From: Burkholderiales bacterium
Lineage (GTDB): Bacteria; Pseudomonadota; Gammaproteobacteria; Burkholderiales; SG8-41
Length of the DNA: 64,000 nucleotides
Assembly: GCA_043743335.1 (NCBI GenBank)
Contig: JAYTWR010000149.1
Location: 11,924 to 75,923, forward strand
Direction: 5' to 3'
In this document: piece after piece, positions 426 through 61,713 of the stretch
Numbering within the stretch: position 1 is the stretch's first letter
How the letters are laid out: each line of letters begins with the position of its first letter
Program-made: the position numbers and the translations under genes
The notes under the pieces: model-generated
The model's input: the letters and a program-made list of their open reading frames with translations, nothing else
Told to the model about the DNA's origin: nothing
Database searches by the model: none

Positions 426-920
426 TTGCGCCGTGGTTTGTGTTGCCGGAGTCTGATTCTGTCATTTACTGTGCCCCAAGCCGAAGTCACGCTGCCCATC
501 AAGCCTTCCCGCAGGCTCGCGCACTACCTGACGCTAATGGCCGTCGTGCCGGTAGTGCCGGCGCTGAGCTACTTGCCGGTGGAATGGAGCTTGGCGTTGG
601 CGTTGGTGGTGGCTGGATGCCTCGTACACGTGCTGCGATTGCACGCTTGGCGAACGCATCCGCGTGCCATCGTTGCACTGTGGTGTGGGCACGGCAGCCT
701 TGCTTGCGATACTCGCGCGGGCGCGTGGCGAGACGTGAGTGCAGCACCGGGCGGATTTGTCGCAGCGTGGCTGACGGTGATAAAGCTTCAGTCCCCAGAC
801 GGCAGCGTTCGGGCGAGCTATCTGGTGCTGGTGCCAGGCTGTATGGCGGCTGACCATTATCGGCGACTGCGGGTGCATTTGCGGTGGGCGCGGGCGAGTG
901 TGGCACGTGGCCACTTATAA
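426..920 (+). CDS. small two-TM membrane protein, CptA/YgfX-like (start codon uncertain)
   Basis: Two hydrophobic helices, then the tail LVLVPGCMAADHYRRLRVHLRW, which resembles the E. coli YgfX C-terminus as I recall it (LWLAADSMDEAEWRDLRRIL). No sdhE partner seen upstream. Confidence 0.4.
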   Translation: MRRGLCCRSLILSFTVPQAEVTLPIKPSRRLAHYLTLMAVVPVVPALSYLPVEWSLALALVVAGCLVHVLRLHAWRTHPRAIVALWCGHGSLACDTRAGAWRDVSAAPGGFVAAWLTVIKLQSPDGSVRASYLVLVPGCMAADHYRRLRVHLRWARASVARGHL

Positions 921-933
921 GTATTTGATTTGG
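915..933 (-). repeat. AT-rich junction element, exact IHF-consensus core (918-930)
   Basis: Reverse complement AATCAAATACTTA fits WATCAANNNNTTR. It overlaps the stop codon of the 426-920 ORF. Confidence 0.7.
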
Positions 934-1045
934 CAGTGAAATAATCTATATAACGATGAATTAAATACTTTACATAATATACATTATACGAAGTATTGGA
1001 GTTACTTATAAAGAGGGATGCTGCCGAATTCTGTTACGCGCTAAC
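921..1045. other. about 125-bp strongly A+T-rich island between convergent genes
   Basis: Sharp composition drop relative to both flanks. Contains the element copy above and a second degenerate one (GAAGTATTGGAGTTACTTATAAAG). Confidence 0.7.
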
Positions 1046-2254
1046 CTACACGCTAACGACTGCCCGCGACTCCCGCCACGCCAACAACGCTGGCACCGGC
1101 ATGGCTTTGGCAAACAAATAGCCTTGCGCCAGATCGCATTTGAGGCGGCGCAGTCGCTGGAATTGCGCCTCCGTCTCCACACCTTCCGCCACCACTTTCA
1201 TGTGCAGCTCATGGCCGATTTCAATGGTCTTGCGGACGATCACTTCAGCGATGTGATCGTGCTCCATCGCGCTGGTGAATTCTTTGTCGATTTTGATTTC
1301 GTTGGCTGGGATGCGCTTCAACTGATGCATCATCGAAAACCCGGTGCCAAAGTCATCAATTGACAAATTGACGCCGCGCAGTCTGAGTCGCGCCAAGATA
1401 TCCAGCGCTTGAGCCACTTTTTGAATCATGCCGGATTCGGTCACTTCCACCACAATCCGGTCCGGCGCAACGCTGGCTGCCCGCGCGCTCATCAGCAGCC
1501 GGTCCGGCAGCTTCAGGTCGCATAAAGAAAATGCCGAAACGTTAATCGACAGTGTCGGCGTCCATTCGTGCGCACGAAAAACCTTCGCGTCTTCGAGCAC
1601 TTGCTCTACCACCACCCATGTCAACTCATCAATCAGCCCGCAGGATTCTGCCAGTGGAATAAACGCGTCCGGAAAAATCAAGCCGTGTTGCGGATGCGCC
1701 CACCGCAGCAGGGCTTCAACCCCCACTGGCTCGCCGGACGCCACGTCGATTTGCGGCTGGTAATAGGCGATCAGTTGCTTTGCGGCCAGTGCTTGACGCA
1801 AGGCTTCTGCGGTCAATGTTGGCACCGCATTCGACACGCTTGCACCTGCGGGTGCCAGCGCGACAATCTCATCCGCCTGTCGCAAAAACGCTTCAAGATC
1901 GCTGCGCACCAGCGGCTTGCTCAGCCGGCCCAGCACGCGCAAGCGCAACTCACGCGCCATTTCCTCGGCCACTTGCAGCGTGCGGCGCTCTGCCCCACTA
2001 AACAGCAGTATCCCCGCGCGGCACTGCTGCTCAGATAGAAAGCGCAGCACTTCGATGCCGTCGACACCCGACATCATCAAGTCAACCATAATGACCGCCA
2101 CATCGTCCGCCAGTAATGCTTTAAATGCGGTAAAGGTGCGCGCATGCTCGCAGGCAAAGCCCATCGGGGTCGCGATAGCCGAGATAATCAGCCCAAAAAA
2201 ATGACTGTCATCATCGATGGTCAGCAGACGTCTCATGACTTGCTGGGGATCCAC
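1046..2254 (-). CDS. response regulator receiver + EAL domain protein (c-di-GMP phosphodiesterase)
   Basis: N-terminal CheY-like receiver (IDDD..., VDLMMSGVDG). EAL-domain motifs YYQPQ, EALLRW, DDFGTGFS and KIDKEF. Confidence 0.85.
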   Translation of the reverse strand: MDPQQVMRRLLTIDDDSHFFGLIISAIATPMGFACEHARTFTAFKALLADDVAVIMVDLMMSGVDGIEVLRFLSEQQCRAGILLFSGAERRTLQVAEEMARELRLRVLGRLSKPLVRSDLEAFLRQADEIVALAPAGASVSNAVPTLTAEALRQALAAKQLIAYYQPQIDVASGEPVGVEALLRWAHPQHGLIFPDAFIPLAESCGLIDELTWVVVEQVLEDAKVFRAHEWTPTLSINVSAFSLCDLKLPDRLLMSARAASVAPDRIVVEVTESGMIQKVAQALDILARLRLRGVNLSIDDFGTGFSMMHQLKRIPANEIKIDKEFTSAMEHDHIAEVIVRKTIEIGHELHMKVVAEGVETEAQFQRLRRLKCDLAQGYLFAKAMPVPALLAWRESRAVVSV

Positions 2255-2524
2255 TCTGGGCTGCTAACCGTCATTTTGGCTAGCGAAAATATAGCAATGG
2301 CTTACAAAATTTTCAAACACCAGTATACAGAGTCCCACTTCCGATTTTGATATCCTACTGTAACAGATTTGTATCTTTCAGTAGCACTGAATTTCCGCTG
2401 AGACGCGCAAGCGCCGTGATTTATGCCGAAGCGTGTGATGTGCTCACGCAAGGCAATATCGCGATGTCAGCGCCACGACCGATGCGGTCGCTTCGTCACC
2501 GGCATCTTATGACGAATCTGAATA

Positions 2525-2564: not shown

Positions 2565-2705
2565 TCAGTCAATTTTCGCGCCGGCGATTTCGACAATCTC
2601 TGCGAACTTTTTAATTTCCACACCCAAAAATTCGCGCAACTGCTCTGCCGTGGACCACTCCGGCGGCGCGCCCATTTTCAGCAGCGTGTCTGCGACCTGT
2701 GGGCT
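2565..2705 (-). pseudogene. Bug/TctC-family receptor, C-terminal fragment only
   Basis: Only about 46 aa remain (PQVADTLLKMGAPPEWSTAEQLREFLGVEIKKFAEIVEIAGAKID). This is the typical Bug C-terminus, with no upstream body. Confidence 0.6.
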
Positions 2706-2896
2706 TGATAGTCCGCGGCTAGCGCGTGTAACGGCAGCACGACCAAGGCCACACGCATGACGCTGCGCATCATGGGCTCTTGATCGTTGCAATCGAGCCA
2801 CGTTTGGTAGAATTCGCCGAACGTCGCTTCATCCAGCGCTTTCACATCGACGCCGCTGATTTCCGCGCCTATCGGCCCCATGCGACGAATTTCCAT
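2678..2896 (-). pseudogene. TauD/TfdA-family dioxygenase, N-terminal fragment
   Basis: Good SD (AGGAG) and start. MEIRRMGPIGAEISGVDVKALDEATFGEF is a typical TauD N-terminus, but the frame ends after about 70 aa and runs into the Bug remnant. Confidence 0.55.
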
Positions 2897-3037
2897 GATC
2901 CGAACTCCTGCGTGATTGGTGTGCTGGCGGCAGTTTAGCCGCTTCGTGTACGGATGTAATCCGCCATCGGGAGCAGCGCAAATTTGATACGCTACAGGCT
3001 CTTTGCCCATTCTCGTTCCAAACGCCGGAAGGATGTC

Positions 3038-3262
3038 ATGCACTGCTTGAGCGTACTTAGCATACTCAGCCTGATTTGCGTTGCAACCACCGTCGCCATC
3101 TCGTCAGCAAGCGCACAGCCCTACCCCGCCAAACCCTTGCGCTTCATCCTGCCGTTCCCACCCGGCGGCGCTACTGATGCCGTAGGCCGCACCATCGCTG
3201 AACGCTTCTCATCCGCGATGTCGGCATACGCGGCGACTGACCCACGCGCATGGACGCTCTGA
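3038..3262 (+). pseudogene. Bug/TctC-family receptor, N-terminal fragment
   Basis: Signal peptide plus QPYPAKPLRFILPFPPGGATDAVGRTIAERFS, then the frame degenerates and stops after about 75 aa (full length is about 325 aa). Confidence 0.6.
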
Positions 3263-3459: not shown

Positions 3460-3546
3460 TGCAATGGCTATCCGTGAATCGGCCTTACCGTGCTGAGGCT
3501 ACAATACTGCGGGTGCTGGCGCTCGCGGTAATGAATTAAAAATATG

Positions 3547-3567
3547 TTTAAAATCAATTACTTATGA
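3547..3567 (+). repeat. AT-rich junction element, exact core AATCAATTACTTA (3552-3564)
   Basis: TTTAAAATCAATTACTTATG, 29 nt upstream of the acyl-CoA dehydrogenase ATG. Confidence 0.8.
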
Positions 3568-3592
3568 TAAACCCACACTTCACCAGGCGACC

Positions 3593-5393: not shown

Positions 5394-6407
5394 ATGAAAG
5401 CAGTGGTATTGAACGAACACGGCGGTCTGGAAAAATTGCAGATCGTGAACGATTTTCCCGACCCGGTGGTGGTGGAGGGGCACGTCGTTATCAAAGTCGG
5501 CGCGACGTCGTTTAATTATCACGATGTGTTCACGGTGCGTGGCATGCCCGGCATCAAGGTGCCGATGCCGATGATTATTGGCTTGGATATCGCGGGCGAA
5601 ATTCTTGAAGTCGGTAGCGGCGTTAGCGGCGTTAGCGGCTGGAAAAAAGGCGACCGCGTGCTGGTGAATCCGCTCAACAAGAAAAAGGGCTTGATGGGCG
5701 AAATGATGCACGGCGGTCTAGCGGAAAAATGTCTGGTAGCTGCCGATCAATTGATTGCCATGCCGAACGAGGTGAGCTACGAACAAGCCGCCTCGCTGCC
5801 GGTGGCTTACGGCACGGCGCACCGCATGATCATCACTCACAACACCATCAAAAAAGGTGACAAGGTACTGGTGCTGGGCGCGAGCGGCGGCGTGGGTACG
5901 GGGTGCGTACTGCTGGCGAAAATGCTGGGCGCGGAAGTCATTGCCTGCGCTTCGAGTGCAGACAAAATCCAGCGCTTGAAAGACCTCGGTGCGGATCACG
6001 TCATCAATTACAAAGACACTGATTTCTCCAAGTGGGCCATCGAAAAATTCGGCAAGCCGCAACGCCGCAACAACGAAGGCGGCGTGGATGTGGTGATCAA
6101 CTTCACGGGCGGCGATACGTGGGGGCCGACGCTGCGTTGCGTGAAACGCGGCGGCAAAATTCTGGTGTGCGGTGCAACGGCGGGCTACGACCCGAAAGAA
6201 GACCTGCGCTATGTGTGGAGCTTTGAGTTGCAGATCATCGGCTCCAACAGCTTTTACGACGAGAACCTCAAAGCGCTGATGGACATGATTCAGCAAGGCA
6301 CGATGAAGCCGGTGATCGACGAAGTACTGCCGCTGGAACGCGCTGCCGAGGGCCTGCGTTTAATTGAAAACCGCGAAGTGTTTGGCAAGGTCATCATAAA
6401 ACCGTAA
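5394..6407 (+). CDS. zinc-type alcohol dehydrogenase / quinone oxidoreductase (MDR family)
   Basis: 337 aa with GDRV, the GASGGVG Rossmann motif and MDR length. Contains an in-frame 9-bp triplication (GSGVSGVSG). Confidence 0.85.
   Translation: MKAVVLNEHGGLEKLQIVNDFPDPVVVEGHVVIKVGATSFNYHDVFTVRGMPGIKVPMPMIIGLDIAGEILEVGSGVSGVSGWKKGDRVLVNPLNKKKGLMGEMMHGGLAEKCLVAADQLIAMPNEVSYEQAASLPVAYGTAHRMIITHNTIKKGDKVLVLGASGGVGTGCVLLAKMLGAEVIACASSADKIQRLKDLGADHVINYKDTDFSKWAIEKFGKPQRRNNEGGVDVVINFTGGDTWGPTLRCVKRGGKILVCGATAGYDPKEDLRYVWSFELQIIGSNSFYDENLKALMDMIQQGTMKPVIDEVLPLERAAEGLRLIENREVFGKVIIKP
5613..5639 (+). repeat. 9-bp tandem repeat x3, in frame in the MDR dehydrogenase
   Basis: GGTAGCGGC GTTAGCGGC GTTAGCGGC encodes GSGVSGVSG. 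Confidence 0.9.
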
Positions 6408-6434
6408 CTAATTGATTTTATTGAGTTATTTTAA
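6405..6434 (-). repeat. AT-rich junction element, exact core (6405-6417)
   Basis: TAACTAATTGATTTTATTGAGTTATTTTAA. It begins with the ADH stop codon and ends 7 nt before the next ATG. Confidence 0.85.
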
Positions 6435-8990: not shown

Positions 8991-9069
8991 GTCGTTGTTT
9001 TTCCTCGTTGTTCTCGTTGTTCTCGTTGTTCTCGTTGTGCTCGTTGTTCTCGTTGTGCTCGTTGTTCTC
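8991..9069. repeat. 9-bp minisatellite (CTCGTTGTT/G), 7 full units plus degenerate ends
   Basis: Units counted at 9004-9066. Intergenic, between convergent genes; the ORFs across it are repeat translations. Confidence 0.9.
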
Positions 9070-9108: not shown

Positions 9109-9855
9109 TTACGCCGTGCCAAATCCCCGCTGGCGTCGGGCCTCGTACAGGCAAATACCCGCAGACACCGACACGTTCAAGCTCTCCACCGCCCCCAGCA
9201 TGGGAATCCGCACCAGTTCATCGCAGCTCTCGCGCGTGAGGCGGCGCATGCCCTCGCCTTCCGCGCCCAGCACCAGCGCGCGCGCGCCGTCGAGCTTGGC
9301 AGCATGCAGCTCCACCGTGGCATGTTCATCCGTGCCGGTGATCCACACGTTCCGTTCCTTGAGCTCGCGCATGGTGCGCGCGAGGTTGGTCACCGCGATG
9401 TAGGGCACGGTTTCCGCTGCGCCGCTGGCGACTTTGGACACCGTGGCGTTAAGACCCACCGCGCGGTCTTTGGGCGCGATCACCGCATGCACGCCCATCG
9501 CGTCGGCCACGCGCAGGCACGCACCGAGGTTGTGCGGATCGGTGACGCCATCGAGTATCAGCAACAACGGTGGCTCGCTGAGCGTTTCCAGCACATCATC
9601 AATATGGGTGGCGAGTTTGCGTGGCGCGACGCTGGCCGCTACACCCTGGTGGCGCGCGTTGCCGGTCATGCCATCGAGTCGTTTGCCGTCAACGCTCATC
9701 ACTCGCACACCACGCGTTTGCGCCAGTTTGACGACATCCGCGCTGCGGCGGTCACCACGCGCGGCATCGACGAAAATTTCGCGCACTTGGTCTGGCGCAC
9801 TGCGCAGGCGGCTGGTGACGGCGTGAAAGCCGTGAATGACGTGAGATTCACTCAT
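9109..9855 (-). CDS. rlmB: 23S rRNA (guanosine-2'-O)-methyltransferase RlmB
   Basis: SpoU/TrmH motifs ([25 protein letters not shown]) and the conserved position downstream of rnr. Confidence 0.85.
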
Positions 9856-9884
9856 AAAATACTCAATAAAATCAATTAGTTATG
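9856..9884 (+). repeat. AT-rich junction element, exact core AATCAATTAGTTA (9870-9882)
   Basis: AAAATACTCAATAAAATCAATTAGTTATG abuts the rlmB start codon (9853-9855) and fills most of the rnr-rlmB spacer. Confidence 0.85.
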
Positions 9885-9902
9885 TAATATCACCCATCAC
9901 AC

Positions 9903-12260
9903 TCACCCTTCATCCAGCACAAAGTCAATGCGCGCTGAATCCAAATTCGCCCGTGCCACTTTCACGCGCACGCGGTCGCCCAAACGAAAGCGTCGCTTGG
10001 TGCGCTCGCCCAATATTTGATGGCGGGCGGCGTCAAAGTGAAAGTAATCCTTGCCCAAATCCGACACGTGCACCAGCCCTTCGGCGTAAATGTCATCCAG
10101 CGCGACAAAAATGCCGAAGCCGGTGACGCCGCTGATGCTGCCGTTATAGCTCTCGCCCACTTTGTCCTGCATGTAATAGCACTTAAGCCAGTTGGTCACA
10201 TCGCGCGTGGCCTCGTCGGCGCGGCGTTCGGTCATGGAGCATTGCTCGCCGAGCGTAATCCAGTCGCCGGGTTCGTAGCGTTTTTTCTCCAGCACCGCTT
10301 TGATGGCGCGATGTACCAGCAAGTCGGGGTAACGGCGAATGGGTGATGTGAAGTGGGTGTAGGACTCGTATGCTAAGCCAAAATGTCCAGCGTTTTTCGG
10401 GGTATACACCGCCTGCTTTAGCGAGCGCAGCATGACCGTTTGCAGCAATTGCGCATCAGGCCGGTCGCGCACTTTGGTGAGCAGCGCGGCGTAATCCTTG
10501 GCATGCGGTTTGTCGCCGCCACTCAAGTCAAAGCCAAAGCCGCCGAGAAATTCACGCAGCGCAGCCAGTTTTTCCGGCGTGGGGCCTTCGTGCACACGAT
10601 AGAGCATAGGCTGACCGTGCTCCGCGAGAAAATCCGACGCGCACACGTTGGCCGCCAGCATGCACTCCTCGATCACGCGATGCGCGTCGTTACGCTTGAC
10701 CGGCACAATGCGCTCGATCTTGCGCTGATCGTTGAAAATGATTTCGGTCTCGGTGGTTTCGAAATCAATGGCACCGCGCTTTGCGCGCGCCTTCACCAGT
10801 TTGCCGAACAAGGTGTAGAGATTCTTCAATTGCGGCAACAGCTTTTGCTGCTCTGGCGTGCCGGCTTTGCTGTCGGCCAGCATCGCGGCAACCACGGTGT
10901 AAGTGAGCCGCGCATGCGAGCGCATCACCGCTTGATGAAAACTGTAATCGGTGATTTTGCCTTGCGCGCTGACGGTCATGTCGCAGGCCATGCACAAGCG
11001 ATCCACGTGGGGATTGATGGAGCACAAGCCGTTCGACAAATGTTCCGGCAGCATGGGAATCACCTGCCGCGGGAAATACACCGAGTTGCCGCGCTGCTGC
11101 GCTTCCACATCCAGCGCATCGCCGGGCTTCACATAAAAACTGACATCGGCAATCGCCACAATCAGCCGGAAGCCGCCTCTGCCGTGCGGCCCGCAATACA
11201 CCGCGTCGTCAAAATCACGTGCGGTTTCGCCATCGATGGTGACCAGCGGCAATTCGCGCAGATCCAGCCGACCTTTGCAGTCGCGCGCGCTGACTTCAGG
11301 TGAATACTTCGCAGCGAGCTTTTCCACGTCGGGCGGAAACTCGTGCGGTAACGAATGCTTGCGCAGCGCGATTTGGATTTCCATGCCGGGGTCGCCGTAG
11401 CTGCCGAGCACTTCAACCACGCGCGCCACCGGCTGGCTGTGGCGCTGTGGTTGTTCAATCAAATCAACCGTCACCACCTGCCCCGGTTTGGCATTGCCGG
11501 TCTGGCCCGGCGGCACCATGAATTCCTGACTGATGCGCTTGTCTTCGGCCACCACAAAATACACTCCGTGGCGGTTTTGCAGCCGGCCCACGTGGCGCGT
11601 TTTTGCGCGTTCTAGGATTTCCGCGATTTTGCCTTCGGGGCGTCCGCGCCTATCCATGCCGCTGATGCGCGCCATTACCCGATCGCCGTGCAGCACTTTG
11701 CGCATTTCGTCGGGGCCCAGAAACATGTCCGGCCCTTTGTCATCGCGCACCAAAAAGCCGAAGCCATCGGGGTGCCCTTGTACGCGACCGGCCACGAGAT
11801 TTAGTTTTTCGACGATGCAAATCGCGTCTCGCCGGTTGCGCATGATCTGGCCTTCGCGCTCCATTGCGCCCAGACGCCGCGTGAACTGTCGGATTTCGTC
11901 GGCTTGAATGCTGAGCAGTGCGCACAGTTCGTGCTCTGCCACCGGTACGCCCTGCTCTTTCAGCGTGGCGAGGATGAATTCGCGGCTGGGTAGCGGGTTT
12001 TCGTAGCGCAATACTTCCCGGTTATAGAACGGGTCGCGTTGATTGCGATCGGTGAGCGCGGAGTGCTCCGGCGGGCTGGTCACAAGGCGCGCCGTGCGGG
12101 CTGGGCGTGGTTCACGCGGATCACGCGGATCACGTGCCGCGCGTGAAATGCGCGCGGTGCGCGGCTTTTTGCCGGCGGCGACCGGCGCTTTGGTTTTAGC
12201 CGTGCGCGAGGTGCGCGCCGGATTGGTGCTGAGGGCGGATTTCTTTTTAGGTGTTTTCAT
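9903..12260 (-). CDS. rnr: ribonuclease R
   Basis: 785 aa with RNB domain motifs (TIDGETARDFDDAV, FTSPIRRYPDL), a C-terminal S1 domain and a basic N-terminal extension. Confidence 0.9.
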   Translation of the reverse strand: MKTPKKKSALSTNPARTSRTAKTKAPVAAGKKPRTARISRAARDPRDPREPRPARTARLVTSPPEHSALTDRNQRDPFYNREVLRYENPLPSREFILATLKEQGVPVAEHELCALLSIQADEIRQFTRRLGAMEREGQIMRNRRDAICIVEKLNLVAGRVQGHPDGFGFLVRDDKGPDMFLGPDEMRKVLHGDRVMARISGMDRRGRPEGKIAEILERAKTRHVGRLQNRHGVYFVVAEDKRISQEFMVPPGQTGNAKPGQVVTVDLIEQPQRHSQPVARVVEVLGSYGDPGMEIQIALRKHSLPHEFPPDVEKLAAKYSPEVSARDCKGRLDLRELPLVTIDGETARDFDDAVYCGPHGRGGFRLIVAIADVSFYVKPGDALDVEAQQRGNSVYFPRQVIPMLPEHLSNGLCSINPHVDRLCMACDMTVSAQGKITDYSFHQAVMRSHARLTYTVVAAMLADSKAGTPEQQKLLPQLKNLYTLFGKLVKARAKRGAIDFETTETEIIFNDQRKIERIVPVKRNDAHRVIEECMLAANVCASDFLAEHGQPMLYRVHEGPTPEKLAALREFLGGFGFDLSGGDKPHAKDYAALLTKVRDRPDAQLLQTVMLRSLKQAVYTPKNAGHFGLAYESYTHFTSPIRRYPDLLVHRAIKAVLEKKRYEPGDWITLGEQCSMTERRADEATRDVTNWLKCYYMQDKVGESYNGSISGVTGFGIFVALDDIYAEGLVHVSDLGKDYFHFDAARHQILGERTKRRFRLGDRVRVKVARANLDSARIDFVLDEG
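12112..12135. repeat. 9-bp tandem repeat x2.7 in the rnr 5' coding region
   Basis: TCACGCGGA TCACGCGGA TCACGT encodes PRDPRDPREP on the minus strand. Confidence 0.85.
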
Positions 12261-12318: not shown

Positions 12319-12403
12319 GCCCAGGTGGCGGAATTGGTAGACGCACCAGCTTCAGGTGCTGGCGGGTAATACCGTGGAGGTTCGAGTCCTCTTCTGGGCA
12401 CCA
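12319..12403 (+). tRNA. tRNA-Leu (anticodon CAG)
   Basis: GCCCAGGTGGCGGAATTGGTAGACGC..., anticodon loop TTCAGGT, long variable arm, GGTTCGAGTCC T-arm and encoded CCA. Confidence 0.9.
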
Positions 12404-21769: not shown

Positions 21770-21790
21770 TTTTATTGATAATTTTAAACG
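21759..21790 (-). repeat. AT-rich junction element, exact core (21759-21771)
   Basis: TAAGTGTTTGATTTTATTGATAATTTTAAACG contains the stop codon of the GGDEF-EAL gene, between convergent genes. Confidence 0.8.
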
Positions 21791-21792
21791 AA

Positions 21793-22512
21793 CTAACGCC
21801 CCCGCGTCGGCGGCGAGCACGCGCGCAGTCGGCCCGCCACACCGGCGTACGATGTCGGCGTGTCGATAGACTGCTGCGCCTCGGTGGCGGCTGCCATTAC
21901 ACGTTCGATCCAGGGTGTCACCAGCGCCTTGGTGCGCTCACGCACATCGGCTTCGGCGTCCTCGCGCGTGGCGTAAATGCGCGCGTCGCCGATTTCCCGT
22001 CGCAGCACGCCCGGCAGCATTTGGGCGCTCGCCCGCAAATGCGACTTCCAGGTGTTGACGTGTTCCTGCTCGTGCGCCCGGATGACTTCACGACGGCAAA
22101 AGTCAGTCAAGTCGCGCGCGAGATAAACCACGAATGCCGAAAATCCTAGCGTCAGCGTGATTTCAGGCACTGCGCATAGCTGCCCCGGCCCGTCGGCCAC
22201 CGCGCGCACGGCCACGCGCAATTGATAAGTGGGTTTGGCATGGGTCAACCCTAAGGTGTTGACGAAGCCACCCGCCGGCTTGTTCGACATTTCGGTTAGC
22301 TTTTGGATGCTAAGGGAATCATCGGATGCCACCACGCGATCCTCAAACTCAACCGTAATCGGTGCCTCGCGCCCGAGGCGCTCACAGCGCTGTGCAAAGT
22401 CCGCTGCAGGCACGTTTGCCGCATGCACGCACATCGATGCGAGCATGGTGCCGACGATTCTCCACATAATTGCGCGAATTAACACAACATTCTTTCTCGG
22501 ATGCGTTCGCAT
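21793..22512 (-). CDS. hypothetical secreted protein with HExxH motif (DUF922-like?)
   Basis: Possible signal peptide (MLASMCVHAANVPA) and an HEQEH motif; family assignment is from memory only. Confidence 0.4.
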   Translation of the reverse strand: MRTHPRKNVVLIRAIMWRIVGTMLASMCVHAANVPAADFAQRCERLGREAPITVEFEDRVVASDDSLSIQKLTEMSNKPAGGFVNTLGLTHAKPTYQLRVAVRAVADGPGQLCAVPEITLTLGFSAFVVYLARDLTDFCRREVIRAHEQEHVNTWKSHLRASAQMLPGVLRREIGDARIYATREDAEADVRERTKALVTPWIERVMAAATEAQQSIDTPTSYAGVAGRLRACSPPTRGR

Positions 22513-23590: not shown

Positions 23591-23660
23591 GCGGCGGGTC
23601 GTATAATGCACGCCCGGCACTCGACTAACGTTTTTCGAGTTGAGAGTTGCGAGAATAACG

Positions 23661-23680
23661 CTAACTAATTGTTTTATATG
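23661..23680 (-). repeat. AT-rich junction element, variant core (23662-23674)
   Basis: CTAACTAATTGTTTTATATG; the terminal ATG is the MoxR start codon. Confidence 0.7.
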
Positions 23681-27605: not shown

Positions 27606-27629
27606 CGTTAATCTAAAAGCTGAATCCCC

Positions 27630-33067: not shown

Positions 33068-33077
33068 GTTTAGTTCC

Positions 33078-38943: not shown

Positions 38944-39047
38944 ATGACTTCCCCTTTTCTGGTTTGACCCGTGCTGCTGGACCCCCTCGGTCGCGGCATT
39001 CAGGTTTAGCGTGCTATTTTACCACAAATTAAAATGCCCTACATACA

Positions 39048-39075
39048 AAAAATCATTTAAAAACAGATACTTAGG
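39048..39075 (+). repeat. AT-rich junction element, degenerate copy (core 39061-39073, 2 mismatches)
   Basis: AAAATCATTTAAAAACAGATACTTAGGG aligns to the 13871 and 61684 copies; lies in the fabG-acpP spacer. Confidence 0.5.
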
Positions 39076-39083
39076 GTTTTCGA

Positions 39084-40759: not shown

Positions 40760-40808
40760 AAATTATTCAATAAAATCAAATAGTTAAATAGTTAAATCGT
40801 TAAATACG
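40760..40808 (+). repeat. AT-rich junction element, exact core (40774-40786), followed by an 8-bp tandem array
   Basis: TTATTCAATAAAATCAAATAGTT then AAATAGTT AAATCGTT AAATACG. It spans the whole fabH-fabD spacer, including the fabH stop. Confidence 0.85.
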
Positions 40809-43160: not shown

Positions 43161-43190
43161 GATTAACGGGATATTAACGGGATACTAACT
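43161..43190. repeat. 11-bp tandem repeat x2.7 in the rpmF 5' leader
   Basis: ATTAACGGGAT ATTAACGGGAT ACTAACTG, immediately upstream of the rpmF SD. Confidence 0.85.
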
Positions 43191-43199
43191 GGGGTTACG

Positions 43200-43228
43200 T
43201 TATAACTAATTGATTTTAATAAATATTA
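43200..43228 (-). repeat. AT-rich junction element, exact core (43202-43214)
   Basis: TATAACTAATTGATTTTAATAAATATTAT in the yceD-rpmF spacer. Confidence 0.85.
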
Positions 43229-43301
43229 TTATCTGAACGATACAGGCGCAAGTTCACAACCTGCCCTCACTTTCGCCAATCCGTTACCAAAACTTTACTT
43301 G

Positions 43302-44610: not shown

Positions 44611-44635
44611 CCTTAAGCCAACGCGGCGAATACCT

Positions 44636-44656
44636 TGTAACTATTTGATTTTATAC
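44636..44656 (-). repeat. AT-rich junction element, exact core (44638-44650)
   Basis: TGTAACTATTTGATTTTATAC sits just after the maf stop, where the Bug pseudogene's signal peptide should be. Confidence 0.8.
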
Positions 44657-44680
44657 GGATTTTTAACATCAACCAGCCAA

Positions 44681-48642: not shown

Positions 48643-48672
48643 AACTAGTTGATTTTATTGAATATTTTTTAA
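48640..48672 (-). repeat. AT-rich junction element, exact core (48642-48654)
   Basis: CATAACTAGTTGATTTTATTGAATATTTTTTAA carries the acyl-CoA synthetase start codon, the deacetylase stop codon and the deacetylase tail LKNIQ. Confidence 0.85.
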
Positions 48673-50863: not shown

Positions 50864-51862
50864 TTGTTAAACGTCGCAGTCGTCGGCATGGGTTGGTGGG
50901 GCAAAATCATTGTTCCGCTAATCAAGACCAGTGCAAAACTCAGTGTCACTACCGTCGTGGAAGTGAATGCACCGGCGATCGCGGATTTTGCGCAGGCGCA
51001 AGGCGTCAAAGTGGTTACCGATTTCAATGCCGTGCTGCGCGATCCGACAATACAGGCCGTGGTGCTGGCGACGCCGCACACGCTGCATACCGATCAAATC
51101 GTCGCTGCGGCCAACGCTGGCAAGCACATCTACTGCGAAAAGCCGCTGTCGATGACGCGCGCCGACGTGTTGCGCGCGATCCAATCGGTCAACGACAACA
51201 AGGTGGCGCTGGCGGTGGGCCACGAGCGGCGCTTTGAGCCGCCGATTATCGAGGCCATGCGCGTGATTCGTTCCGGCGAGCTGGGCGTGCCACTGCAAAT
51301 CGAAGCCAATTTCAGCCAGGATAAATTTCTCACGCTGCCGGCCGATAACTGGCGGCTGTCTGGCAAAGAAGCGCCGGCCGGCCCGATGACGGCGACCGGC
51401 ATTCATCTGCTGGATCTGTCGGTGGGCGTGTTTGGCGAGGCCGAGCGCGTGTTCGCCAGTTGCAAACAACTCGGCAGTCAGCTCGTCAACGGCGATACGC
51501 TGGCCATTCTGGTGTCGTTCAAAAACGGCGGGCATGCGCTGTTGAGCGCCATCCTCGCCACGCCGTTTGAAGGCCGCTTCGCGGTCTATTGCACCAAGGG
51601 CTGGATCGAGGTGCGCGACAAAACCCATCCCGAAGCACCGGAAGGCTGGACGCTCACCACCACGCATCAGGGCGGCAAGCGCGAAGTGCGGGAATACGCC
51701 CCGGCGTCCACCGTGCTCGCCAATCTGGAAGCGTTTGCTGATGCCGCAGCGGGCCGCGCGCCCTACCCCGTGCCGCAGTCGCAGATGATTGCTAATATTT
51801 CCGCGCTGGAAGCCATTTTCAAATCTGCATCCAGTGGCGAAATCGTCGCGGTGGAATCGTGA
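50864..51862 (+). CDS. Gfo/Idh/MocA family oxidoreductase (TTG start)
   Basis: VAVVGMGWWGK Rossmann N-terminus and EKPL; AAGGAG SD 6 nt upstream. Confidence 0.8.
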   Translation: MLNVAVVGMGWWGKIIVPLIKTSAKLSVTTVVEVNAPAIADFAQAQGVKVVTDFNAVLRDPTIQAVVLATPHTLHTDQIVAAANAGKHIYCEKPLSMTRADVLRAIQSVNDNKVALAVGHERRFEPPIIEAMRVIRSGELGVPLQIEANFSQDKFLTLPADNWRLSGKEAPAGPMTATGIHLLDLSVGVFGEAERVFASCKQLGSQLVNGDTLAILVSFKNGGHALLSAILATPFEGRFAVYCTKGWIEVRDKTHPEAPEGWTLTTTHQGGKREVREYAPASTVLANLEAFADAAAGRAPYPVPQSQMIANISALEAIFKSASSGEIVAVES

Positions 51863-51921: not shown

Positions 51922-52767
51922 ATGAAGCTGTGCCGCTATGGAAAAGAAGGTAACGAAAAACCCGGCATCATTGATGCGCAAGGCAAGCTGCGTGATTTGT
52001 CTAAAGTGGTCGGCGCGCTGGACGCTGAAACGCTGTCGCCACGCAATCTGGCGCGCATCACCAAGATCAAGCCAGAAACACTGGCTGTCGTCACGGGCAC
52101 GCCGCGTTTTGGCGTGCCGTTCACCGGCATTTCGAAATACGTTGCTATTGGCTTGAATTATTCCGATCACGCCGCTGAAGCCGGCATGGCGGTGCCCACC
52201 GAGCCGATTATTTTCATGAAGGCCACCACCAGCATTTGCGGCCCGAACGACGACACTATCATCCCGCGTCATTCCACCAAGTTGGATTGGGAATGCGAGC
52301 TGGCGATTGTTATCGGTACCAAGGCCCAGTACGTGAGCGAAGAAGATTCGCTCAACTACGTGGCCGGTTATTGCGTGGCCAACGATGTTTCCGAACGCGC
52401 GTGGCAGTTGCAATCGTCGCAGTGGGACAAGGGCAAGGGCTGCGATACCTTCGGCCCCATCGGCCCGTGGCTGGTGACCACCGAGGAAATGACCGACGCG
52501 CAAAATCTGGATATGTGGCTGAACGTCAACGGCCAGCGCATGCAGGCCGGCAACACCCGCACCATGATTTTCGGTGTGCGCAAAATCATTTCGTACTGCA
52601 GCCACTACATGACGTTGCTGCCCGGCGATGTCATCTGCACCGGCACTCCGCCTGGCGTGGGTATGGGCAAAAAGCCCAACCCCATCTGGCTTAAAGCCGG
52701 TGACGTGGTGACACTGGGCATCGAAGGCTTGGGGCAGCAACAGCAAAAGATCGTTGCCGCGTCGTAA
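51922..52767 (+). CDS. fumarylacetoacetate hydrolase (FAH) family protein
   Basis: GLNYSDHAAE, ELAIVIG, GDVICTGTPPGVG; GGAGG SD. Confidence 0.85.
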   Translation: MKLCRYGKEGNEKPGIIDAQGKLRDLSKVVGALDAETLSPRNLARITKIKPETLAVVTGTPRFGVPFTGISKYVAIGLNYSDHAAEAGMAVPTEPIIFMKATTSICGPNDDTIIPRHSTKLDWECELAIVIGTKAQYVSEEDSLNYVAGYCVANDVSERAWQLQSSQWDKGKGCDTFGPIGPWLVTTEEMTDAQNLDMWLNVNGQRMQAGNTRTMIFGVRKIISYCSHYMTLLPGDVICTGTPPGVGMGKKPNPIWLKAGDVVTLGIEGLGQQQQKIVAAS

Positions 52768-52808
52768 TTAAATAACCCATTGATTTTTAACAGTTTTAGT
52801 ATTTTATT
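52768..52808 (-). repeat. AT-rich junction element, exact core (52773-52785)
   Basis: TTAAATAACCCATTGATTTTTAACAGTTTTAGTATTTTATT fills the entire FAH-Gfo spacer. Its left arm TTAAATAACCCA is shared with the 54841 copy. Confidence 0.75.
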
Positions 52809-54840: not shown

Positions 54841-54876
54841 TTTTAAATAACCCAATAAAATCAATTACTTAAATAG
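54841..54876 (+). repeat. AT-rich junction element, exact core (54859-54871)
   Basis: TTTTAAATAACCCAATAAAATCAATTACTTAAATAG, 10 nt beyond the prpE-like stop codon. Confidence 0.85.
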
Positions 54877-54885
54877 ATATCGCCA

Positions 54886-59001: not shown

Positions 59002-60426
59002 TCAAAGATTCAGCGTACGCCCATCCACCGCCAGCGCCGCCTCTTTCATAGCCTCGGACAGCGACGGATGCGCATGGCAAATCATCGCGATGTCTTCAGA
59101 TGAAGCGCCGAATTCCATCGCGGTGACGGCCTCGCTAATCAGCTCGGATGCCATGGGCCCGATGATGTGTACACCCAGGATACGATCCGATTTTTTGTCG
59201 GCGATAATTTTTACAAAGCCGGTGGTATCACCCAAGGCGCGCGCACGGCCATTGGCCATGAATGGAAACGACCCCGTACGGTATTCGAACCCTTCAGCTT
59301 TGACCTGCTGCTCGGTCTTGCCCACCCAAGCGATTTCCGGCGCGGTGTAAATTACCCATGGCACGGTGTTGAAATCCACGTGGCCATATTTGCCAGCGAT
59401 GCGTTGCGCCACCGCTACGCCCTCTTCTTCGGCTTTGTGCGCGAGCATGGGGCCGCGTACCACGTCGCCCACCGCCCACACATTCGGCAGATTGGTTTTG
59501 CAATGATCGTCCACGGCGACAAAGCCGCGCTCGTCGAGCGTGAGGCCTACTGCGGCAGCATTCAGCCCGGCGGTATGGGGCACGCGGCCGATGGAGACGA
59601 TGAGCTTGTCCACGATCAGCGTCTGCGCTTTGCCGGCGCTGTCGGTGTAGTCAACACTGACCGCTTTAGCGGATTGGATAGCGCCGACTTTAACGCCGGT
59701 ATGTATGGCAAGCCCTTGTTTTATAAAGACTTTATTCGCTTCTTTCGCGACCGCTTCGTCTGCGGCACCGAGAAACACCGGTAACGCTTCGAGTATCGTG
59801 ACCGTCGCGCCCAAGCGCCGCCACACGCTACCCATCTCCAGGCCGATGACACCCGCGCCAATGACGCCCAGCGTTTTGGGCGCTTCGGTAATCGCCAGCG
59901 CGCCGGCGTTGTCGAGGATCAGCTTGTTGTCGAACGGCGCGCCGGGCAATGCGCGCGGGCTGGAGCCAGTGGCGACGATCACATGCTTGGCCACCAAATC
60001 TTCTTCAGTTTTGCCGCTGACTTTGATTTGCCACGCCCCCACCGCACCACCGGCAAATGCGCCGGTGCCGTGAAAAAACGTGACTTTGTTTTTCTTCAGC
60101 AAATACAGAATGCCGTCGTTGTTTTGTTTAACGACCTTGTCTTTGCGTTTGAGCATTTGCGCCACATCCATGCTCAAGCCGCTGACCTTGATGCCATGAT
60201 CAGCAAAGGTATGCGCGGCATGGTCGTAGTTCTCGGACGATTGCAGCAGCGCCTTAGACGGAATACAACCCACGTTGGTGCAAGTACCACCGGGTGCAGG
60301 CTTGCCGTCAGCGGTTTTCCATTCGTCTATGCACGCCACCTGCATGCCAAGTTGCGCCGCGCGGATAGCGGCAATGTAGCCGCCGGGACCGGCGCCGATG
60401 ACCACCACGTCGAAATTTTTAGCCAT
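59002..60426 (-). CDS. lpdA: dihydrolipoyl dehydrogenase (E3)
   Basis: [11 protein letters not shown], redox-active [14 protein letters not shown]-terminal HAHPSLSE. Confidence 0.95.
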
Positions 60427-60427
60427 G

Positions 60428-61675
60428 TTAAACGTCCAGCAACATGCGCGCGGGGTCTTCCAGCGCGTCTTTCATCGCCACCAATGACAACACGGCTTCG
60501 CGGCCATCAATAATTCGGTGATCGTACGACAGGGCCAGATAATTCATCGGGCGAATCACGATTTGACCATTCTCAACCACGGGCCGGTCTTTGGTGGCGT
60601 GCACGCCGAGTATGGCGCTTTGCGGCGGATTGATAATCGGCGTGGAGAGCATGGAGCCGAACACCCCGCCATTGGAAATCGAAAACGTGCCGCCGGTGAG
60701 TTCTTCCAGCGTGAGCTTGCCTTCTTGCGCGCGCTTGCCGTAGTCGGCGATGGTTTTTTCGATGGCGGCCAGCGTCAGTTGATCGGCGTTGCGCACGATC
60801 GGCACCACCAGCCCGCGCGGGCTGCCCACGGCGACGCCGATGTCGTAGTAGCCGTGATAAATAATATCGTTGCCGTCGATTGACGCATTCACTAGCGGAT
60901 ATTTCTTCAGCGCATACACCGCCGCCTTGACGAAGAACGACATAAAGCCCAGCTTCACGCCATGCTCTTTTTCAAAGCGGTCTTTGTAACGATTGCGCAG
61001 ATCAATCACCGGCTGCATGTTGACTTCGTTGAATGTGGTCAAAATCGCAGCGGTGGATTGCGACTGAATCAAGCGCTCGGCTATGCGCGCACGCAAGCGT
61101 GACATGGGCACGCGCTGTTCTGGACGCTCGCCCAAGGCGCTGAGATCGACGCTGGGTGCGGCAGCGCGTGCCACGGCGCGCACCACTGCAGGTGCAGCCG
61201 CTTTCGAGGTTGGTACCATAGGTGCCGAAACAGCTGCCGCCGGTTTGAGCGCGTCAATGACATCGCCTTTCGTCACGCGGCCACCGCGACCGCTGCCGCT
61301 GATGGTGCCGGTATCGAGATTATTTTCGGCGGCTAATTTTTGCGCAGCGGGCATGGCGGCGGCTTTTGCAGATGCAGATGCGGGTGTTGCAGTCGCGGCA
61401 GGTGCGCCGCCTGCGGGCGCACTTTCAGACGCCACGGCTTCGGTATCAATCTGCGCGATAATTTCTTTGCTGGCGACGGTGCTGCCATCGCCTTTGACAA
61501 TTTTGATGAGCACACCCGAAGCGGGTGCGGGGGTCTCCAGCACCACCTTGTCGGTTTCGATATCGACCAGATTTTCGTCGCGGGTCACCTTTTGGCCGGC
61601 TTTCTTGTGCCAACTAACCAAGGTGGCTTCTGCTACCGATTCCGACAACTGCGGCACTTTGACTTCGACTATCAT
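60428..61675 (-). CDS. sucB: dihydrolipoyllysine-residue succinyltransferase (E2o)
   Basis: Lipoyl domain (IETDKVVLE), Ala/Pro linker, catalytic SYDHRIIDG. Confidence 0.95.
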
Positions 61676-61683
61676 GGAATCAC

Positions 61684-61713
61684 CGTAAGTATTTGTTTTT
61701 ATTATGTTTTATT
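61684..61713 (-). repeat. AT-rich junction element, variant core (61686-61698)
   Basis: CGTAAGTATTTGTTTTTATTATGTTTTATT fills the sucA-sucB spacer. Its core is identical to the 13878 copy. Confidence 0.7.

Follow-up and report, generated by a model that had tools for sequence, protein, structure and literature searches.

Conserved A+T islands with an IHF-like core suggest lineage-specific marking of gene borders in a Burkholderiales genome

The window analysed here, a 64,000-nt stretch of a Burkholderiales contig with a GC content of 58.6%, carries housekeeping operons together with genes such as those for acyl-CoA enzymes and EAL-domain proteins. Dispersed among these genes are 24 copies of one sequence family, 15 with an exact match to the IHF core consensus WATCAANNNNTTR and nine variants, each forming a discrete A+T island of ~37 bp. 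The copies are listed below with their strand and core; a slash marks the junction of two genes, and L numbers denote loci from other genomes.

910-946, minus: island, core AATCAAATACTTA, about 100 nt past the stop of an EAL response-regulator gene (1046-2254, minus)
2517-2553, plus: variant island, core AAACAATAAGTTA, within the spacer 5' of the same gene (1046-2254, minus)
3536-3572, plus: island, core AATCAATTACTTA, with an acyl-CoA dehydrogenase ATG (3593) 28 nt downstream
6397-6433, minus: island, core AATCAATTAGTTA, filling a 33-nt spacer and supplying the TAA stop of 5394-6407; an acyl-CoA ligase ATG lies at 6441
9854-9890, plus: rnr/rlmB island, core AATCAATTAGTTA; A/T arm abuts the rlmB ATG (9855, minus); kept in L159, L161 and L163
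13862-13898, plus: hisZ/purA variant island, core AAACAAATACTTA; hisZ ends at the TAA of the island
21751-21787, minus: island, core AATCAAACACTTA, in a 23-nt convergent spacer (19202-21769, plus; 21793-22512, minus), overlapping the stop of a GGDEF/EAL gene
23654-23690, minus: variant island, core AAACAATTAGTTA, overlapping the start of a MoxR-type AAA gene
27576-27612, plus: island, core AATCAATTAGTTA; left arm forms the last codons and TAA of a TgpA-like gene, with an SDR ATG 25 nt downstream
28450-28486, plus: island, core AATCAATTAGTTA, starting 3 nt past the ATG of a TctC gene (28447) and encoding signal-peptide residues 2-13 (NKIHLKSISYKI) if that ATG is the true start
30515-30551, plus: island, core AATCAATTAGTTA, with a malonyl-CoA decarboxylase ATG 25 nt downstream
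33070-33106, minus: weak variant, core ATTCAAATAGTTA, at the junction of tatD and 32429-33067
34820-34856, plus: tmk/holB variant island at a stop/start overlap (ATGA); core within the last tmk codons, left arm within the initial codons of the gene that follows
39045-39081, plus: fabG/acpP variant island, core AAACAGATACTTA, with a TGnTAAAAT extended -10-like box downstream; kept in L079
40758-40794, plus: fabH/fabD island, core AATCAAATAGTTA; A/T arm abuts the fabD ATG
43195-43231, minus: yceD/rpmF island, core AATCAATTAGTTA; present in L080/L081, missing from L079, L086 and L085
43964-44000, plus: weak variant, core AAGCAACTACTTA, directly upstream of a possible maf ATG
44630-44666, minus: island, core AATCAAATAGTTA, 27 nt past the maf stop; weak counterpart in L080/L081
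46972-47008, minus: variant, core AAACAATCACTTA, inside an ADP-forming acyl-CoA synthetase ORF, as an in-frame run of A/T-rich codons (local GC 0.23)
48634-48670, minus: island, core AATCAACTAGTTA, at a 12-nt spacer; left arm carries the upstream stop (TAA), and the ATG of 46549-48642 arises where TG adjoins the final TTA of the core; weak counterpart in L080
50832-50868, plus: weakest exact match, core AATCAAGGAGTTA; its N4 holds the GGAG ribosome-binding site of 50864-51862, and the match may be partly coincidental
52765-52801, minus: island, core AATCAATGGGTTA, filling the 41-nt spacer between FAA-hydrolase and oxidoreductase genes
54843-54879, plus: island, core AATCAATTACTTA, 14 nt past the prpE stop
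61678-61714, minus: sucA/sucB variant island, core AAACAAATACTTA, filling a 38-nt spacer

Both strands of the whole window together contain 22 exact matches to WATCAANNNNTTR, compared to 1.22 ± 1.02 in dinucleotide shuffles, none of which reached 22, confirming the over-representation of an A+T element with an IHF-consensus core proposed in the initial annotation. Fifteen of these matches (8 plus, 7 minus) are the exact family copies, for which the core coordinates given there were all correct save one (43202, now 43203). The other seven (17652, 23335, 30111, 31381, 33465, 34068 and 48481) lie in GC-rich coding DNA without an A/T flank and do not belong to the family. Weaker copies were sought using an HMM trained on the 15 exact copies and a relaxed pattern, which retrieved the nine variants named earlier (2533, 13878, 23662, 33078, 34836, 39061, 43980, 46980 and 61686); the total is thus 24 copies, rather than the 25 first counted from 15 exact copies and ten variants, nine of them named. 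In an unbiased k-mer count of the window, ATCAATTAGTTA and neighbouring words rank first among the over-represented words. The A+T-richness of spacers is not the cause of the count, because junction segments alone, which make up 13% of the window, contain 14 exact cores versus 0.25 expected when each segment is shuffled separately. Overall, the density in the source lineage is roughly one element per 2.6 kb (about 0.4 sites per kb).

The placement at gene boundaries was borne out, with 23 of the 24 copies touching a junction, also within the packed housekeeping operons (rnr/rlmB, hisZ/purA, fabH/fabD, fabG/acpP, tmk/holB and sucA/sucB), and with the copy at 46980 as the only one deep inside an ORF. 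Often the island takes up the whole 12-47 bp spacer and overlaps a stop or start codon, the TAA at one end being the stop codon of the upstream gene and the opposite end abutting or overlapping the downstream ATG, frequently without a Shine-Dalgarno sequence. Several copies extend into terminal coding sequence, as at the tmk C-terminus and holB N-terminus, or in the n-region of the TctC signal peptide. At co-directional junctions, 11 copies are antisense and 9 sense, showing no orientation bias relative to transcription; a wide set from other genomes is likewise unbiased, and one copy (21759) lies between convergent genes. The proposal that the elements demarcate transcription units is not supported, because many copies lie inside conserved operons (fabH/fabD, hisZ/purA, rnr/rlmB, sucA/sucB, tmk/holB), in addition to the one between convergent genes and the one within an ORF.

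In the forward direction, the family consensus is A-tract-(TCAAT/nTTT)AAAA-W-CAR-WTAS-TTA, with an A-rich tract leading into (A)A-W-C-A-R, then W-T-A-S and finally T-T-A. The consensus T is missing from 9 of the 24 window copies (six AAACAA and one each of AAACAG, AAGCAA and ATTCAA). If IHF is the ligand, it must accept A at this position, because the AAACAA form is frequent, occurring in 11 of 17 copies from relatives, and is itself perfectly conserved. In the E. coli IHF-site compilation, this T is reportedly the least conserved letter. The N4 of the core is constrained to W-T-A-S: every one of the 24 window copies has S and 18 have TA, and 19 orthologous copies from five junctions share an invariant TTA, CA, A run, TA step and S, with R as the last base of CAR. 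The three subfamilies described earlier are visible, but they represent a continuum, since orthologous copies switch between forms. The tmk/holB copy has a tandem duplication, and the fabH/fabD copy a tandem repeat, of the right core half. The islands showed no terminal or flanking inverted repeats, essentially no predicted hairpins or self-structure, and no sigma-70 promoter or terminator features.

Among related genomes, the elements are restricted to the closest relatives (GC 56-59%), where they occupy the same junctions. The hisZ/purA 18-mer TAAGTATTTGTTTTTAAA is identical in five genomes in which third codon positions of purA are 54-63% identical, and the core remains invariant at orthologous junctions while synonymous sites are near saturation. 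The fabH/fabD copy is found at seven loci representing six distinct relatives (L080 and L081 being identical here) and is absent from distant relatives, which have an overlapping stop/start or a 4-17 nt spacer (40 nt in L102) compared with 27-62 nt in the source lineage, indicating that about 30 nt were added in this lineage. Comparison of orthologous junctions, a check proposed in the initial annotation, revealed shared sites and, at some junctions, presence/absence differences, namely gain or loss between relatives at yceD/rpmF and rnr/rlmB. No element was found in over 70 loci at greater evolutionary distance (mostly exceeding 55% GC, up to 21 kb each); nearly all GC-rich loci among them had not one core, AT-rich loci had cores only at chance level, and a 50-kb E. 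coli control contained two cores and no element. The retention of islands with an invariant core at orthologous junctions argues for host-level constraint, and these sequence comparisons suggest that the islands are a conserved, lineage-specific marking of gene borders.

The exact 20-mer of the element also occurs in many other Proteobacteria, including records titled Alpha- and Deltaproteobacteria, mostly as one copy per locus. In 49 GC-rich loci of other species containing it, A+T content is 0.84-0.98 at positions -9 to -1 (A-biased) and 0.6-0.86 at +21 to +28, before dropping to about 0.45, which delimits an island of 37 bp with its A-tract directly preceding the 20-mer on the WATCAA strand. 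In L040, L049, L052 and L060, sigma-54-type promoters (TGGCAY-N5-YYGCW) are found 6-20 nt away from the island, meaning four within about 45 nt versus an estimated 0.4 or so expected from a background of 0.023 per kb per strand, and sigma-54 activator genes adjoin the island in L049 and L052. Elsewhere, the island lies immediately 3' of tRNA-Thr (L002) or tRNA-Val (L019), or follows a tRNA fragment with a P4-type integrase alongside (L069). Such sigma-54 promoter and tRNA/integrase settings are classical IHF contexts, although the identity of the 20-mer over several proteobacterial classes exceeds what the published IHF consensus predicts.

We give roughly even chances to a reading in which the islands are candidate IHF-type DNA-bending sites that act at the DNA level and are kept by selection. 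The IHF-site interpretation made initially agrees with their anatomy, comprising the core, a same-strand A-tract about one helical turn 5' and a sharp extent of ~37 bp, and with the contexts of the 20-mer elsewhere; the identity of the ligand as IHF we infer from these features. Each island would be a strong site for the heterodimeric nucleoid protein IHF, or for a protein of nearly the same specificity, and bound IHF would wrap about 35 bp and bend the intergenic spacer sharply. Action on double-stranded DNA would allow either orientation to work, and DNA-level action is indicated by the 11 antisense to 9 sense orientation, the convergent-gene copy and the even strand split. The sites may have accumulated in the source lineage through copy-and-paste, gene conversion or repeated selection towards one optimum, with purifying selection retaining them and neighbouring genes adapting to them, using TAA as the upstream stop and ATG at the opposite end. 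More tentatively, the bends may be local architectural or insulating elements tuning the expression of neighbouring genes; we know of no role that an IHF site within an operon would play.

Some other nucleoid or architectural protein with A+T specificity (H-NS-like, Fis, Lrp or a lineage-specific factor), with the IHF likeness partly coincidental, is an unlikely ligand. In its favour, the family is stricter than the IHF consensus (N4 as WTAS, W replacing the consensus T), its high density is limited to one lineage, and the H-NS nucleation suggested earlier is based on the agreement at 8 of 10 positions between the left arm of one subfamily, TCAATAAAAT, and TCGATAAATT, reportedly a high-affinity H-NS motif. 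This arm is, however, missing from the equally conserved TTTAAAAACAAATACTTA form, neither the Fis (G-N13-C) nor the Lrp pattern fits by inspection, and the sigma-54 and tRNA/integrase settings of the identical 20-mer are not H-NS contexts. The Alpha- and Deltaproteobacteria, in whose records the 20-mer appears, to our knowledge largely lack H-NS and Fis.

Similarly, it seems improbable that the islands are harmless, tiny selfish or copy-and-paste elements of about 30-37 bp inserting at stop/start junctions, with the IHF site as a passenger or cofactor site. The mobile origin considered in the initial annotation is consistent with the extra ~30 nt at fabH/fabD, the polymorphism at yceD/rpmF and rnr/rlmB, the three-frame stops in one orientation, and the near-identity over about 30 nt of window paralogues (6405 and 9870; 27592 and 28466), which are mutually closer than 9870 is to its own orthologues. 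Nevertheless, target-site duplications are no commoner than in controls (mean 2.15 versus 2.29), inverted repeats and self-structure are lacking, transposases and integrases are not enriched among the genes of 107 flanks taken from other genomes, and the copies remain at orthologous junctions with an invariant core despite near-saturated synonymous sites. We know of no mechanism for moving 37 bp.

An unstructured A/U-rich intercistronic mRNA signal, such as an SD-independent (ribosomal protein S1-type) translation enhancer, a cassette for re-initiation or a site of RNase E cleavage, would account for the frequent stop-element-start layout, the near absence of predicted structure, the direct contact of ATG and A/T arm at genes such as rlmB, fabD and the one at 52809, and the lack of a Shine-Dalgarno match in 11 of the 14 genes marked as closely preceded by an element. 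We regard it as quite improbable: sense and antisense copies are both conserved although their RNA sequences differ, some copies (21759, 54859, 918) are flanked by convergent genes or are 100-170 nt away from the nearest start, the same 20-mer occurs upstream of sigma-54 promoters in probably untranscribed DNA, and a generic A/U-rich leader needs no invariant 16-nt sequence. Promoters or UP-element-like activating sequences of the downstream gene are very unlikely; a TATAAT-like hexamer often lies 3' of the 20-mer in other genomes, the fabG/acpP island directly precedes its conserved TGnTAAAAT box and three sense-oriented copies lie 25-28 nt before an ATG, but across the 60 kb scanned no sigma-70-type match coincides with an element, a TTG-type -35 at constant spacing is lacking, half of the copies are oriented against flanking genes, with one between convergent stops, and many island-filled spacers leave too little room for a promoter and a leader. 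A role as DNA uptake sequences in a lineage with natural competence, which would fit the over-representation, dual orientation, orthologous conservation and lineage-specific density, is extremely unlikely given the degenerate core (AATCAA or AAACAA; TTAG, ATAG, TTAC or ATAC), the mostly single copies of the 20-mer in many unrelated Proteobacteria, the strictly junctional placement and the sharp 37-bp bounds.

Returning to the reading as IHF-type sites, the A-tract of lambda H' lies 9-14 nt 5' of its core, and the A-tract placement in the islands agrees with this spacing. The invariant positions of the 19 orthologous copies fit the IHF consensus WATCAR-N4-TTR, except that its T is W here, and N4 = WTAS is a feature of the island family, whereas the classical consensus has no such requirement. 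RIB/RIP and Correia elements carry IHF sites, and IHF-type sites would thus be common to them and the islands. Correia elements further contain stop codons in three frames (PMC2229807), as does the island in one orientation (TAACTAATTGA).

The 13-mer core pattern WATCAANNNNTTR has 22 matches on both strands of the 64-kb window (58.6% G+C), against 1.22 ± 1.02 expected in dinucleotide-preserving shuffles, and none of 100 shuffles reached 22, which bears out the excess over chance put forward in the initial annotation. Alignment shows that the likeness among 15 of these matches extends well beyond the 13-mer, running from an A/T arm ([A]TAAAAT(A)n-TCAATAA or nnTTTAA) into AATCAA, WTAS and TTA; eight of these strong copies lie on the plus strand and seven on the minus strand. 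The remaining seven matches are unrelated and lie within GC-rich coding DNA, with no A/T flank. A profile made from the strong copies, used together with a relaxed pattern, added nine weaker ones, all of which retain CAR and TTA and eight of which carry A or G where the consensus has T.

Weaker copies found with the profile and relaxed pattern, named by core coordinate
2533, 13878, 23662, 34836, 46980 and 61686: AAACAA instead of AATCAA
39061 and 43980: AAACAG or AAGCAA variants
33078: ATTCAA variant, in which T replaces the second-position A

The dispersed element is a solid observation, with 24 copies in the window instead of the 25 first counted and with the earlier coordinates correct to within one base. 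Its density, about 1 per 2.6 kb, exceeds that of cores in an E. coli control roughly ninefold, and a 50-kb E. coli stretch held no copy of the element. When junction segments only were considered (spacers plus 20 nt of either gene end; 13% of the window), each shuffled separately, 14 cores were observed against 0.25 expected, so A+T-rich spacers alone cannot account for the count. Pattern-free k-mer counting likewise gave ATCAATTAGTTA and overlapping words as the most over-represented in the window. The second most over-represented word set comes from a 9-bp tandem repeat of perfect period at 9004–9069 (CTCGTTGTT x 7.3, 92% matches), in a 225-nt spacer downstream of rlmB.

Genes were called by an iterative codon model and checked against Pfam and NCBIfam; they include rlmB-rnr, purA-hisZ-hflCK, tmk-holB-tatD, the plsX-fabHDG-acpP-fabF cluster, yceD-rpmF, maf, prpE, sucAB and others. 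As had been claimed, the copies sit at gene boundaries, 23 of the 24 touching a junction, and where spacers are short (12–47 nt) the element makes up essentially the entire spacer. The stop codon of the upstream gene is the TAA at the element's TTA end at 6405 and at hisZ/purA, and the start codons of rlmB, fabD and gene 52809 abut the A/T arm. At copy 48642, where the intergenic distance is just 12 nt, the left arm holds the upstream stop, and the last TTA of the core continues with TG to give the downstream ATG. At tmk/holB the genes overlap (ATGA) and the element lies wholly within the coding ends of both. Copy 46980 (46972–47008) lies deep in an ORF, in the ATP-grasp part of an ADP-forming acyl-CoA synthetase, where it reads in frame as ...ISISNITQLKQSLMMM... 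through consecutive A/T-rich codons, with a local GC of 0.23 against a GC3 of ~0.70. Orientation is unbiased, with 11 antisense and 9 sense copies at co-directional junctions; one copy sits between convergent stop codons. Because many copies lie within conserved operons, the earlier suggestion that the element demarcates transcription units is unsupported.

Copy 28466 (28447–28486) codes for residues 2–13 (NKIHLKSISYKI; MNKIHLKSISYKI...) of the signal peptide of a TctC (Bug-family) protein, provided that translation truly begins at the ATG at 28447; the alternative GTG start would give no charged n-region. A second QPYPxKP(V/L)R motif, like the mature TctC N-terminus, is found at 3100–3150 (CCCTACCCC at 3119; compare 28540). 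This region may be a gene fragment, since no full TctC ORF fits there, and the gene call beside it, 2678–3043 on the minus strand, is doubtful.

A metagenome scan probed with FabH gave 80 loci fetched from other genomes (L-numbers), of which only the closest carry the element (L079–L084 and L086; FabH 80–89% identical, G+C 56–59%). It is absent from more than 70 more distant loci, of up to 21 kb each and mostly above 55% G+C; nearly all GC-rich ones are without any WATCAANNNNTTR, and AT-rich ones have it at chance level only. It follows that the high density belongs to a single lineage, whose members have copies at the same junctions in the same orientation.

Presence of the element at orthologous junctions
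fabH/fabD: in the window, L079, L080/81, L082, L083, L084 and L086
fabG/acpP: in the window and L079
yceD/rpmF: in the window and L080/81; absent in L079, L086 and L085

At fabH/fabD, distant relatives have a stop/start overlap or spacers of 4–17 nt, with one of 40 nt (L102), and ~30 nt were therefore added in the lineage. With RlmB as a second probe, five more loci were fetched, one of them from MAG GCA_945861275.1. At hisZ/purA all five genomes share the 18-mer TAAGTATTTGTTTTTAAA without a difference, and purA third codon positions are only 54–63% identical among them. At rnr/rlmB the element is present in four genomes and in the fifth has shrunk to 12 nt, and its versions there read TAACTAATTGATTTT, TAACTAATTGTTTTT, TAACTATTTGTTTTT or TAAGTATTTGTTTTA. 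The subfamilies distinguished in the initial annotation are real as sequences; since different versions occupy this one orthologous site, they interconvert. Across 19 orthologous copies at five junctions, T-AAAA-W-CA-R-W-TA-S-TTA (forward sense) is invariant. The comparison of orthologous junctions proposed earlier thus yielded both same-site copies and presence/absence differences, at yceD/rpmF and rnr/rlmB, and this alignment is strong evidence for purifying selection on the specific sequence, with occasional gain and loss.

Four lake MAGs (L159, GCA_945861275.1, contig CAMATZ010000017.1; L017; L021; L056) also carry the element, at 59–61% G+C and with RlmB 86% identical to that of the window. 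Their records are titled Bordetella parapertussis, a label that looks wrong, and they belong in or near the window's lineage. In L159 the rnr/rlmB spacer has grown to 151 nt (9880–9990) through three tandem copies of the short unit CAGGATTAA and a partial copy in inverted orientation, TCCTGTCAATCCTGTCC, directly past the element. In the window, an 11-bp tandem repeat at 43162–43189 (ATTAACGGGAT x 2.5), missing in relatives L079 and L080, separates the yceD/rpmF element from the rpmF ribosome-binding site.

The longer exact form of the core, the 20-mer TCAATAAAATCAATTAGTTA, occurs at at least 77 loci in one-genome-per-species contigs. Among the matches listed, it is found mostly in Burkholderiales-type Betaproteobacteria, and also in Pseudomonas, Cellvibrio, Tepidiphilus, Bergeriella and records titled Alpha- and Deltaproteobacteria, usually with one copy per 8-kb locus. 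At 49 distinct GC-rich loci the surroundings of the 20-mer are A+T-rich just at -9 to -1 (A-biased) and +21 to +28, beyond which A+T falls abruptly to background; window copies are alike. Many unrelated genomes therefore have the unit as a discrete island of 37 bp. In these other genomes the orientation of the 20-mer relative to flanking genes is unbiased. Those genes are of many kinds, and the Pfam families of 107 flanking ORFs are not enriched in transposases or integrases; the commonest family, TctC (6), tops the list because Burkholderiales have so many of its members. When the island was compared by BLAST with 5,426 E. coli genomes and 50,697 phage records, the matches did not exceed chance level and fell in A+T-rich DNA. 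Two loci (L015 and L050; Alphaproteobacteria; Reyranella) have the 20-mer 118 nt ahead of gyrA with flanks conserved on both sides; the site is orthologous and apparently a conserved regulatory one.

IHF has two textbook places, upstream of sigma-54 promoters and in the arms of integrase att sites, and these contexts apply to the 20-mer in other genomes, not to the window copies. A sigma-54-type promoter motif (TGGCAY-N5-YYGCW) lies 6–20 nt from the island in L040, L049, L052 (Pseudomonas) and L060 (Cellvibrio), against an estimated ~0.4 expected so near (measured background 0.023 per kb per strand), and in L049 and L052 the adjoining gene codes for a sigma-54 activator. The island starts at, or a few bases from, the 3' end of a tRNA gene in L002 and L019, MAGs titled Deltaproteobacteria and Limnohabitans, and in L069 it follows a tRNA 3' fragment beside a P4-type integrase with an arm-binding domain.

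The core, the A-tract, the 37-bp extent, the independence of orientation and these contexts elsewhere lead us to read the islands as putative IHF-type sites. Fifteen copies match the classical core WATCAR-N4-TTR exactly, and CA and TTA are invariant in the 19 orthologous copies. Classical IHF sites extend over ~35 bp and have an A/T tract about one helical turn 5' of the core on the same strand; in the 37-bp islands an A-tract lies directly 5' of the 20-mer on the same strand, at a position that we take to match the spacing of lambda H', and the presumed lambda H2 sequence (AATCAACTACTTA) is one base different from copy 48642. Other features fit the IHF proposal of the initial annotation less well: the consensus T is W in the element family, the AAACAA form being itself perfectly conserved; N4 is restricted to WTAS; and the whole 20-mer is identical over several proteobacterial classes to a degree greater than the published consensus predicts. 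Either the optimum of IHF would be sharper than the textbook pattern, or the ligand would be a protein of overlapping specificity. We therefore see the odds as evenly balanced that the islands are IHF-type bending sites acting on DNA with IHF itself as the ligand, and rate a DNA-level protein site in general higher. Such bends at gene borders might provide local architectural, supercoil or transcription insulation, tune the expression of neighbouring genes or serve nucleoid folding.

The A/U-rich transcript may have a secondary role in translation, since of the 14 genes that were flagged as directly preceded by an element, 11 have no recognisable Shine-Dalgarno match, a figure that is indicative only because start calls are approximate. 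Across the window, with the same approximate starts, a recognisable Shine-Dalgarno sequence within 20 nt of the called start is found in few genes, and in almost none that an element precedes. Such a role cannot, however, explain copies between convergent genes or far from starts, nor sequence conservation in both orientations.

The ~30-nt additions at once-compact junctions, the near-identical paralogues and the gain and loss of copies suggest copying of the element. Near-identical pairs in the window are 6405 with 9870 and 27592 with 28466, and possible filled and empty sites are seen as presence/absence at yceD/rpmF and rnr/rlmB and as the longer fabH/fabD spacer, with blurred boundaries. 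A conventional mobile element as the source of copies is argued against by the lack of any transposon hallmark and by the long persistence of copies at orthologous junctions. Target-site duplications average 2.15 at elements and 2.29 at random control positions; the longest inverted repeat between the two flanks of 65 nt has a mean length of 5.4 nt (controls, 6.0), with none of 8 nt or more; and the islands show no self-structure, with a minimum free energy of -1.1 kcal/mol compared with -1.6 for shuffles. Two junctions show tandem duplication of the core's right half, at 40778–40806 after the fabH/fabD element (AAATAGTT x 3.6) and at 34838–34857 in tmk/holB (ACAATTACTT x 2), a pattern that suggests replication slippage on the element.

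An H-NS-like 10-mer, judged against TCGATAAATT, which we take to be the high-affinity nucleation motif, matches at 8 of 10 positions just in the TCAATAAAAT arm of one subfamily and is absent from the conserved TTTAAAAACAAATACTTA form. A sigma-70 promoter or UP element, for which -35 and -10 hexamers spaced 16–18 nt and pointing towards a gene would be expected, was rejected, as no promoter-like match overlaps the elements and orientation is unbiased; the scan for sigma-70-type promoters covered 60 kb of the window, as did one for intrinsic terminators (a GC-rich hairpin plus T run), of which none was found at elements. DNA uptake sequences have an exact, lineage-specific core at about 1 per kb, whereas here the core is degenerate and the same 20-mer occurs in many unrelated taxa. 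Resemblances to Ter/Tus (GTAACTAA) and to an FNR half-site (TTGAT-N4-TTGA, a direct and not an inverted repeat) were dropped on inspection. No element has an Rfam match; the sole match in the window is tRNA-Leu(CAG) at 12319–12403, between purA and rnr, the only RNA gene found there.

The most far-reaching account, which we consider unlikely, is that a lineage of Betaproteobacteria, uncultured and from freshwater and soil, uses a stand-alone 37-bp IHF-type site as general gene punctuation; at the density of the window, each genome would have roughly a thousand copies or more. The copies would be made by a copy-and-paste or concerted-evolution process on units far below any known mobile element. 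Selection would maintain them as boundary elements that at the same time supply the stop codon, the spacer and a start region free of Shine-Dalgarno sequence.

Full-text searches for the 13-mer in either orientation returned no description of the element in the accessible, incomplete literature, and a broader search on IHF repeats returned known REP and MITE work only. With classical single IHF sites, such as lambda attP H' and H2 and those upstream of sigma-54 promoters, the element shares WATCAR-N4-TTR, the same-strand 5' A-tract and an extent of ~35 bp, and the 20-mer of the family fills classical contexts in Pseudomonas, Cellvibrio, Tepidiphilus and the two MAGs with a tRNA-adjacent island (L002, L019). 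Classical sites are individual regulatory or recombination sites, whereas the window has ~24 copies in 64 kb at housekeeping junctions, where neither sigma-54 promoters nor att sites accompany them, N4 is narrower (WTAS) and AAACAA is frequent. That one 20-mer recurs as a probable IHF site across several proteobacterial classes suggests an optimum sharper than the textbook consensus. Cyanobacterial SDRs, reportedly the subject of work by Elhai et al. in 2008, are said to be 21–27 nt long, partly palindromic, nested and not protein-site-like. They and the element are both tiny repeats far below MITE size, apparently inserted at many places, but the element, unlike SDRs so described, is non-palindromic, junction-specific and conserved at orthologous sites.

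The closest parallels are dispersed repeats that contain an IHF site. RIB/RIP elements (BIME-1) of E. coli have one between two inverted GC-rich REP palindromes and, like the window element, are dispersed, extragenic and multi-copy; they lie between genes or at the 3' ends of transcription units (PMC2817692, citing Boccard & Prentki 1993). In the MG1655 record, the stretch at 150–200 kb, inspected for annotated RIP or IHF sites, lists no repeat features. The window element, in contrast, has no flanking inverted repeats or hairpins, consists just of the ~37-bp site itself, often lies over stop and start codons and occurs inside operons. Correia elements (NEMIS/CREE) of Neisseria are MITEs of 105–155 bp with 26-bp terminal inverted repeats and TA duplication, and the 155-bp form has an IHF site that binds in vitro and stop codons in all frames (PMC2229807). 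Like the window element, they are intergenic, lie in either orientation and abound in a lineage of Betaproteobacteria, but the window element is 37 bp long, with no terminal inverted repeats, target-site duplication or sequence similarity to Correia. Membership of RIB/RIP or of a MITE family was rejected, as the defining palindromes, terminal inverted repeats and target-site duplication are all missing; by analogy, the element may work like the IHF module of RIB/RIP and Correia on its own. Those repeats have been known for ~30 years without a settled function, and in them the IHF site comes together with confounding palindromes or transposon ends. In the window an IHF-type site stands alone, dense, exactly at gene borders even inside essential operons and under measurable purifying selection across genomes. 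The element bears on how a 37-bp unit can multiply and gives clean access to the long-standing question of what purpose dispersed IHF sites serve; if IHF binds, it would make the lineage a natural experiment on the effects of sharp protein-induced bends at gene boundaries.
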